Shown here one piece after another: positions 21,419 through 22,039 of a stretch of DNA of 22,039 nt; the stretch's first letter is position 1; the number at the start of each line of letters is the position of its first letter. The stretch lies in IMG/VR virus record IMGVR_UViG_2609459792_000005; one strand, written 5' to 3'. The stretch is from a virus. Taxonomy: Duplodnaviria > Heunggongvirae > Uroviricota > Caudoviricetes. The notes beneath the pieces are model-generated. The model ran no database searches and was not told the DNA's origin. It saw only the letters and a list, made by a program, of their open reading frames with translations. The translations under genes and the position numbers were made by a program.

Positions 21419-21563
21419 CGATGTCCATGTCTGCAATCCGCCTCGCGATACAGCTGTGCGAAGCATAGCAAAATTGAAGCAGTTTATACGTAAGAAATCA
21501 AGCCATTTTCTCAGCAAATGATTCACGCATGGGAATATATAGGGCATACTCAGCAACAGCTAA

Positions 21564-22039
21564 GGAAGGTGCGAATAAGCAGGTCATTTCTTCCCAAGCT
21601 GACTCGCTGATTAAAATTTCGCGGATCTGGGCCGATTTTTTTCCCGCAAACACATCGAATCAGCCTATTTAGACCGTTTCTTCGCCATTTAAGGCGTTAT
21701 CCCCAGTTTTTAGTGAGATCTCTCCCACTGACGTATCATTTGGTCCACCCGAAACAGGTTGGCCAGGGTGAATAACATCGCCAGTTGGTTATCGTTTTTC
21801 AGCAGCCCCTTGTATCTGGCTTTCACGAAGCCGAACTGCCGCTTGATGATGCGAAACGGGTGCTCCACCCTGGCACGGATGCTGGCTTTCATGTATTCGA
21901 TGTTGATGGCCGTTTTGTTCTTGCGCGGATGCTGCTTCAAGGTTTTTACCTTGCCGGGACGCTCGGCGATCAGCCAGTCCACATCCACCTCGGCCAGCTC
22001 CTCGCGCTGTGGCGCTCCTTGGTAGCCGGCATCGGCTGA
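21564..22039 (-). mobile_element. IS5 insertion sequence, one end (16-bp terminal inverted repeat ggaaggtgcgaataag at 21564-21579); element continues beyond the right edge of the window
   Basis: Terminal repeat and downstream sequence recognised as IS5; flanked on the left by CTAA (21560-21563), the usual IS5 target tetranucleotide; contains the transposase C-terminus. Confidence 0.85.
21710..22039 (-). CDS. insH: IS5 transposase InsH, C-terminal part (5' part beyond the window)
   Basis: Frame open from the window edge to the stop at 21710; translation ...[109 protein letters not shown] recognised as the IS5 transposase C-terminus. Confidence 0.85.

Follow-up and report, generated by a model that had tools for sequence, protein, structure and literature searches.

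We argue that an insertion sequence of the ISKpn26 type has landed inside a Q-like antiterminator gene of a Rac-type lambdoid prophage, that it leaves a truncated Q, and that the late genes are probably off. As a whole this is the best explanation we can offer, and we give it a probability of about 0.8. Contig JNRJ01000051.1 of the draft assembly GCA_000704625.1, 22,039 bases long, makes up the entire window. A first-pass annotation of this DNA had placed an IS in the Q/pR' control region of a lambdoid prophage and suggested that it might separate Q and pR' from the late genes. The region was named correctly, but the arrangement was not: the IS lies inside Q, and a pR'-like cassette sits on the late-gene side. 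Loss of late-gene activation, which was also raised there, is kept here as a likely consequence, and we infer that step.

The IS element and its two ends

The right side of the window holds one end of the element:

21564-22039, minus strand: right (transposase-3') end of an IS5-family element, ISKpn26 isoform, running to the contig end
21564-21579: 16-bp terminal inverted repeat GGAAGGTGCGAATAAG, beginning directly 3' of CTAA
21560-21563: CTAA target-site duplication (TTAG on the coding strand), with the same four bases at the other IS end
22039-21710, minus strand: 3' part of the transposase, DDE_Tnp_1 (Pfam match on the called gene)

An IS5-family repeat at 21564, directly past CTAA and belonging to an element that leaves the window, had been described before, and this description is correct. 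All 476 bases of 21564-22039 match many E. coli copies at 100% identity (476/476), and those copies are annotated 'IS5-like element ISKpn26 family transposase'. The element leaves the window because the assembly broke inside the repeat. Compared with K-12 IS5A its window end has 92.3% identity, and with the ISKpn26 copy in strain Ec1120 it has 97%. The name IS5 that it had been given is right at the family level only. By sequence the isoform is ISKpn26, at 92% to IS5 proper.

Looking beyond the contig for the other IS end, the duplication and the flanking genes was sound advice, and all of them were found on JNRJ01000024.1 (60,084 bases) of the same assembly. We predicted the upstream product by joining the IS-free allele to the left end taken from a complete ISKpn26 copy. 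It should consist of residues 1-160 plus an IS-derived GKVRTSS, for a total of 167 aa. The exact 167-aa fusion is present in the protein collection as KDY89217.1 / WP_032203448.1, and it is encoded at the end of JNRJ01000024.1. There the fusion gene is followed by the IS left end GGAAGGTGCGAACAAG and the N-terminal part of the transposase, up to the contig end. The other terminal repeat is at 10484-10499 of our locus L031 on this contig. The far junction reads ...AATTGGTTAG followed by GGAAGGTGCGAACAAG, with the TTAG duplication. The window junction reads CTTATTCGCACCTTCC followed by TTAGCTGTTGCT..., that is, IS and then TTAGCTGTTGCT. The DUF772 domain falls on the transposase part at the other contig and DDE_Tnp_1 on the part in the window. 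Of an element of ~1,196 bp the two contigs contain 466 and 476 bases, and the middle ~254 bp lie in the assembly gap.

The matching duplication and the two gene halves suggest that JNRJ01000024.1 and JNRJ01000051.1 adjoin. The target site YTAR (CTAA) is duplicated at both IS ends and single in the IS-free allele. By these junctions the insertion is simple: four base pairs are duplicated and none of the flanking DNA is deleted. An independent read set, ERR7365138, contains the gene for the 167-aa fusion as well. The exact 42-base junction has no match in the species-representative genomes, and the exact junction of the window is in 0 of 5,426 complete E. coli genomes. Hundreds of complete E. 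coli genomes have IS-free DNA that matches positions 19300-21563 (2.26 kb) at 100% identity. Flanks identical to IS-free alleles, together with intact late genes, indicate that the insertion is recent and that the late region has not decayed.

The interrupted gene

The DNA that abuts the IS is the end of a gene:

21498-21563, minus strand: orphaned 3' end of a DUF1133 gene, codons 160-180 plus stop, 100% identical to the end of WP_000640162.1 of strain CI5

This is the minus-strand frame of 21 codons at 21501-21563, whose stop is at 21498-21500. It had been called compatible with a truncated gene 3' end but too short to be significant. The first half of that judgement survives. The second does not, as the frame is no chance frame but the end of a 180-codon gene in IS-free E. 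coli. In strain CI5 the equivalent of 21498-21563 is the last 21 codons plus stop of the 180-codon WP_000640162.1, a 'DUF1133 family protein'. The insertion site CTAA is nt 478-481 of this 543-nt Q-like gene, and the cut falls after codon 160 of 180. The first-pass annotation had also allowed that 21420-21563 might be ordinary intergenic sequence in IS-free relatives. Alignment to those relatives splits the interval: 21420-21497 is intergenic, and regulatory, while 21498-21563 is Q-like coding sequence.

There are several lines of evidence that DUF1133 is a Q. The protein scores 355 bits against DUF1133 in Pfam and 26.4 bits against Phage_antitermQ (PF06530), which is a bare pass of the cut-off of 26. 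Its PHROG match is 753 ('anti-termination protein Q-like'), with E = 6e-79. A significant match to Q21 in the PDB needed a family profile, because phmmer with one sequence found Q21 at E = 0.3 only. A profile built from 23 DUF1133 family members matches the Q21 structures 6P18/6JNX at E = 8.5e-10. In the profile alignment the N-terminal W-rich helix pairs WIQGKLRMWGRW with WLNGWLELWGAW of Q21, and the whole C-terminal region pairs TC.RRID.WL..AE..LY.PM..AF with TCRREVDEILNASLFMIYPVLDSAF.

Structure points the same way. The AlphaFold model is of moderate quality (mean pLDDT 62, above 90 for residues 131-160 and poor for 1-43). When it was used as a Foldseek query the 11 best PDB matches were all Q21, with probability 0.98-1.00 and TM 0.43-0.59. 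The best superpositions on Q21 have an rmsd of 1.9-3.9 A over about 100 residues.

Genome context can be read in the same direction. Homologues carry a Q annotation in phage Rac-SA53 and in the vB_EcoS-673R7 group. The gene order is DUF1367, ybcO, Q, terminators, morons and lysis genes. In CI5 a DUF1364/YbcO nuclease gene and a DUF1367 gene (NinB/Orf-like in PHROGs) come before the DUF1133 gene, and 3' of the latter there are two TolA-C-domain genes and then holin-lysozyme-Rz. Strain STEC346 has the same late genes and a different antiterminator type at the Q position. These sequence and structure comparisons show that the interrupted gene is a homologue of the Q21 family of antiterminators, and that DUF1133 is a distant relative of phage 21 Q. 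The literature we searched held no mention of DUF1133 and nothing specific on IS insertions in Rac Q.

What the truncation removes

The family alignment has W159, E164 and L167 among its invariant columns and L160, P170, M171 and F175 among the nearly invariant ones. The protein is cut after W159-L160, and the 20 residues that are lost hold 2 of the 8 invariant columns (E164 and L167) plus three nearly invariant ones. In the AlphaFold model residues 149-179 form one long helix, with pLDDT going from 94 to 63. What is lost is the C-terminal two-thirds of this long last helix (19 residues) and the final residue. The profile alignment places the long last helix on Q21 residues 122-158 and the lost segment on Q21 residues 135-162. 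The last helix of Q21, H6, is the recognition helix of a helix-turn-helix and reads the QBE (PMC6606751). In the loading complex, the last six residues of Q21 touch RNA polymerase at its alpha/beta interface (bioRxiv 10.1101/651190).

One could suppose that the 167-aa Q is still active, which would make the insertion silent and leave the late genes expressible. The insertion is at the very 3' end of the gene, and 160 of 180 residues are kept, among them the first HTH helix and the W-rich helix matching Q21 H1. The truncated protein thus retains the N-terminal RNA polymerase-contacting region and about the first 12 residues of the recognition helix. However, the rest of that helix is gone from a part of the model that is of high confidence. 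The lost segment aligns to conserved Q21 residues ...LFMIYPVLDSAF..., it includes E164 and L167, and in Q21 it is this helix that binds the QBE and the C-terminal tail that binds RNA polymerase. We consider an active truncated Q unlikely. By analogy to Q21, a protein that has lost the conserved C-terminal helix would probably no longer antiterminate.

The predicted late promoter cassette

It had been said that nothing like a Q gene or a late promoter is visible between the terminator and the IS. This does not hold, since the 21 codons are the 3' end of a Q-like gene and a promoter-like block lies between its stop and the terminator. The elements in and downstream of this block are:

21462-21503, minus strand: predicted pR'-like late promoter, from its conserved register and phage 21 layout
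21501-21496, minus strand: -35 TTGATT, overlapping the Q-like stop codon
21495-21479, minus strand: 17-bp spacer, predicted as the probable Q-binding region
21478-21473, minus strand: -10 TTCAAT
21467-21462, minus strand: sigma-dependent-pause-like TATGCT
near 21467 +/- 2, minus strand: predicted transcription start
21438-21461, minus strand: conserved leader block TCGCACAGCTGTATCGCGAGGCGG, with its sequence conserved across genera
21391-21417, minus strand: first intrinsic terminator, tR'-like, AAAAAAACCGC-TTAAT-GCGGTTTTTTT
21041-21070, minus strand: second intrinsic terminator, AACCGCCTGTTTAGGCGGTT then CTTTTT, between the late promoter and the lysis genes (terminator scan)
19337-19354, minus strand: third intrinsic-terminator-like site, directly upstream of the holin gene (terminator scan)

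The hairpin at 21391-21417, which had been noticed at first reading, is real: the 121-nt stretch around it folds at z = -4.5 against shuffles. It would end a leader of ~76 nt, and being symmetric it could act both ways. Further terminators before the holin gene are the arrangement expected for Q-dependent late genes.

The promoter hexamers of the window allele are weak, at 4/6 and 4/6. A generic sigma-70 scan did not list the late promoter because its -10 has no A at position 2, and the assignment therefore rests on comparative data. The sequence 3' of the Q-like stop was taken from 25 loci in phage records and species-representative genomes. They cover Escherichia, Shigella, Citrobacter, a Klebsiella phage, Enterobacter, Phytobacter, Pluralibacter, Rosenbergiella, Xenorhabdus, a Providencia phage and others. 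A fixed register is found in 22 distinct loci: a -35-like hexamer (starting with TTG in 19 of the 22), a 16-18-bp spacer and a -10-like hexamer, then TA[TGC][GC]CT 4-7 nt past it and a conserved block of ~24 nt. An intrinsic terminator follows 63-78 nt from the pause-like element in 22/22. The distance between the stop codon and the promoter block is variable across these loci, from 10 to 56 nt. The spacer holds the conserved motifs TTACG.ATAAACTG. The TGAGCA repeats of phage 21 are absent from it, and no binding site can be defined from the conserved motifs. Judged from this conservation and from analogy to phage 21, the pR'-like cassette appears to be intact on the late-gene side, from 21503 to 21391.

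The leader was also examined for other features. RNAalifold on 21 sequences supports the terminator as the only conserved RNA structure in the late leader. No known Rfam family covers it; there are sub-threshold matches to isrK, Thr_leader and AgrB, which are driven by the terminator. In many lambdoid phages tRNA genes occupy the interval between Q and lysis. None were found between Q and the lysis genes here.

We can now return to the idea that the IS physically separates the late genes from a Q/pR' unit that is itself intact. In its favor, the window by itself shows no Q gene in the interval from the terminator to the IS. However, the -35, -10, pause element and terminator are all on the window side, at 21503-21391. 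An intact Q beyond the IS had also been considered, and JNRJ01000024.1 has none: on its side of the IS, Q is represented by codons 1-160 only, after ybcO and DUF1367. Since the far contig holds only these codons and the cassette is absent there, the separation is refuted, and we regard it as scarcely credible.

The scenario we favor, an IS inside Q that turns the late genes off, would run as follows. ISKpn26 transposed into the CTAA at nt 478-481 of the Q-like gene. The upstream piece now gives the 167-aa product, and the codons for the last 20 residues are detached and have no start. RNA polymerase would still start at the late promoter. The truncated Q would be unable to load on the polymerase that is paused there. 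Without a working Q, transcripts would end at 21417-21391 and at the later terminators. The lysis and virion genes would be off, and the prophage would neither lyse the cell nor make particles. It is likely that Q function is lost, that the promoter is active and that the late genes are silent.

A more speculative idea concerns the leader block. Within the Q21 superfamily, DUF1133 proteins could make up a branch that experiments have yet to touch and that has a DNA-binding element of its own. The ~24-nt leader block after the pause, which reads TCGCAAAGCTGTATCGCGAGGCGA and has a second type in Klebsiella/Enterobacter phages, might act as a new cis-element in Q loading or in control of the pause. 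We hold this to be doubtful. If it is true, the IS-cut allele here is a natural C-terminal deletion mutant for dissecting the leader element.

Other insertions in the same gene

The Q-like gene has been hit elsewhere. Three complete E. coli genomes (Ec1120, OY754416 and OY754389) have ISKpn26 at a CTAA 32 bp further into the gene, and the ENA protein P0203 marks a third insertion site. The targets of these other insertions are at nt 446 and 470, against 478 here, and all are CTAA/TTAG. They are separate events because the insertion points and the strains differ. Three independent IS5-family insertions are thus found within 36 bp and in one orientation. Neither an insertion hot spot nor selection for hits at the 3' end is accepted: the gene's five CTAA/TTAG sites all lie at nt 395-481, and this explains why the insertions cluster. 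The truncated members of protein cluster P0002 are mostly contig-end partials, which are uninformative.

The shared orientation raises another scenario, where the IS end activates the adjacent late promoter and changes its output rather than merely killing Q. IS5 activates promoters upstream of bgl, glpFK, flhDC and fucAO. The transposase-3' end is ~97 bp upstream of the predicted start here, which is comparable to the reported IS5-activating positions. All three insertions face the same way, but the probability of one orientation in three events is 0.25 by chance, and their clustering is accounted for by the five target sites. Even if initiation did increase, without Q the extra transcripts would still stop at the terminators. 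The support for activation is geometry, by analogy to those promoters, and we consider it very improbable.

The state of the prophage

The late genes downstream of the cassette are laid out as follows:

18082-19228, minus strand: lysis cassette, with holin at 19013-19228, lysozyme at 18516-19013 and an Rz-like gene at 18082-18531
1202-16471, minus strand: lambda-type packaging, head and tail genes Nu1, A, W, B, C, D, E, FI, FII, Z, U, V, G, T, H, M, L, K and I, from the ORF list and Pfam

The lysis genes match Phage_holin_2_1, Phage_lysozyme and Phage_lysis in Pfam, and they are predicted to be the first late genes that depend on read-through. The genes at 1202-16471 are all open and full length, and Pfam families match them end to end. 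In STEC346 several of the same late genes are frameshifted. An ORF at 20741-21076 (111 aa) was treated as non-coding, given no family match and no annotation in RefSeq relatives.

The early side is on the other contig. Upstream of the truncated Q, JNRJ01000024.1 has YbcO, DUF1367, a six-gene non-phage block, DUF977 and a gene for a 356-aa protein, in the same order as CI5. The Rac early genes seen in the source genome on this contig are a ydaU-like gene and the DUF977 gene, with the cargo block, only. That 7.5-kb non-phage block encodes a BCCT transporter, DUF2254, LysR, ChaC-like, MFS and TehB-like proteins. It lies between the replication genes and the nin region in both the source genome and CI5.

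It must be considered that the prophage was cryptic already, so that the IS struck phage DNA under decay and is a neutral, secondary event. Defects are common in Rac-type prophages, and the non-phage block between the replication genes and the nin region is in line with this. On the other hand, decay is not what the window shows: every late gene is open with an end-to-end family match, and the 2.26-kb flank identical to IS-free alleles makes the insertion recent. Close relatives of the Q module are also found in records deposited as phage genomes. We consider prior crypticity possible, though we lean against it. It is compatible with the main explanation and does not exclude it.

Implications

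IS-mediated inactivation of a prophage, as argued here, is an ordinary event, and current views of Q antitermination and of IS5 behaviour are unchanged by it. For this strain it means that a complete lambda-type set of lysis and virion genes is carried with a dedicated activator that lacks its conserved C-terminus, so the prophage is likely locked. More broadly, DUF1133 is common in enterobacterial prophages and can be read with some confidence as a Q21-like antiterminator, its place in the Q21 superfamily having a statistical basis. The promoter, pause and terminator cassette that goes with it is recognisable across genera, which aids prophage annotation and predictions of inducibility.

Comparison with known systems

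The closest prophage for comparison is the Rac-type prophage of CI5, where the segment from Q to lysis is identical and which is sited at ttcA. Its genes include intR, xisR, ralR, recET, kilR, sieB, the racR/ydaS/ydaT region, the gene for the 356-aa hypothetical protein and the DUF977 gene. By its gene content it runs through ydaT, the racR region, sieB, kilR, recET and xisR-intR to ttcA, and is a full-length Rac-type prophage. The late genes differ: here they are lambda-type (Nu1/A ... tail), whereas CI5 has a terminase plus trkG arrangement. Therefore the prophage is a mosaic. The Q region of K-12 Rac has presumably been lost altogether.

The IS is 92% identical to K-12 IS5 (IS5A, insH1) at the window end and 90% at the other end. 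It shares with K-12 IS5/ISKpn26 the 16-bp terminal repeats GGAAGGTGCGAA(T/C)AAG, the 4-bp duplication of a CTAA target and a DDE_Tnp_1 transposase with an N-terminal DUF772 domain. Complete copies of IS5/ISKpn26 have a length of ~1.2 kb.

The closest known system for Q and its promoter is phage 21 Q with the pR'21 cassette (PDB 6P18, 6P19, 6P1A and 6JNX; record OL657228.1). In both systems the Q gene comes after a nin-region nuclease and before the lysis genes. Both proteins have a W-rich helix in the N-terminal part and, at the C-terminus, an HTH with a long, terminal second helix. The DUF1133 protein is only 15-19% identical to Q21 in structural alignments, and the 17-residue loop in the HT[loop]H motif of Q21 is much shorter in it.

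The annotation of phage 21 places the -35 at 7 bp past the Q stop, with the QBE inside the 17-bp spacer. The start site is 7 nt past the -10, and the pause element TAAGCTG comes directly after the start, with the terminator immediately next. The spacer here has none of the TGAGCA direct repeats found in the Q21 QBE, which means that the binding site must be a different one. The leader is ~76 nt here and ~50 nt in phage 21, and the one here contains a conserved block. The overall layout is shared: a -35 within a few bases of the Q stop, a 17-bp spacer, a pause element after the start (TAAGCT in phage 21 and TATGCT here) and a short leader closed by an intrinsic terminator.

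Disruption of the Q-like gene

Loss of an intact Q-like gene, the Q21-family (DUF1133) antiterminator gene that ISKpn26 cuts here, is not confined to this prophage. The gene has been independently disrupted in further strains. Ec1120, OY754416 and OY754389 carry ISKpn26 at nt 446 of the gene (5297-6492 in locus L002). In the case of protein P0203 an IS5-family end lies at nt 470, and for P0202 there is a frameshift. P0002 is a 174-aa Q-like variant with the C-terminus ...YIPMGKS.

One gene call at the insertion itself is a chimeric ORF of 51 aa (21498-21653, minus strand). It starts from a GTG at 21653, within the IS, and reads on into the orphaned tail of the Q-like gene. 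This ORF is unlikely to be functional, and it served as the unique tag by which the source contig was located.

A block of about 24 nt (21438-21461, minus strand) lies immediately 3' of the pause-like element of the late-promoter cassette. Among the loci compared downstream of the Q-like stop codon (L005-L029) it is conserved across genera, and its sequence is of two types, TCGCAAAGCTGTATCGCGAGGCGA and CGGGACGTTAAAGCGAACTGAGCA. A conserved RNA fold was looked for in this block across 21 sequences and none was detected.

From the late promoter to the holin

The position between Q/pR' and the holin is occupied by cargo, a pair of paralogous genes with a TolA C-terminal domain:

19480-19875, minus strand, TolA C-terminal domain gene (Pfam TolA, 54.6 bits)
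20026-20454, minus strand, TolA C-terminal domain gene (Pfam TolA, 82.6 bits)

A promoter-like site at 20513-20484 (10/12 matches) belongs to this pair, as does a terminator at 19354-19337. In RefSeq, one of the two is listed as a tolA pseudogene. A possible role of their products is interference with Tol-dependent colicins or filamentous phages.

Between these genes and the late-promoter cassette there is a full-length match to the STnc100 sRNA family (Rfam RF02076; 20565-20751, minus strand), which scores 86.6 bits (E = 7e-19), where the family's gathering score is 47. A 111-codon frame with a TTG start (20741-21076, minus strand) covers a very AT-rich stretch (20800-21040). Nothing in the family searches matches this frame, and RefSeq relatives leave it unannotated. 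This interval is probably a non-coding spacer beyond the second terminator.

Non-phage cargo and mosaicism

The Rac-type prophage also holds a 7.5-kb block of non-phage genes (989-8301 in L031, the contig on the other side of the IS insertion; 2252-9564 in L033). It encodes a BCCT transporter, DUF2254, a LysR regulator, a ChaC-like gamma-glutamylcyclotransferase, an MFS transporter and TehB-like/DUF1971, and it is flanked by a DUF977 (ydaW-like) gene on one side and DUF1367 on the other.

PP818812.1, deposited as 'Actinobacillus phage vB_Apl-pPE4', has a Q-like gene 87.5% identical to the E. coli one. Its gene order, DUF1367-ybcO-Q, is that of the E. coli prophage, and the record also carries a Hok/Gef gene. 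The attribution to an Actinobacillus host looks doubtful. Strain STEC346 places a mosaic joint near window position 20646, an approximate breakpoint: it matches 14000-20645 at 99%, and beyond about 20646 it diverges into another antiterminator module with tRNA genes. The late genes are therefore exchanged as one unit and the Q/pR' module as another.
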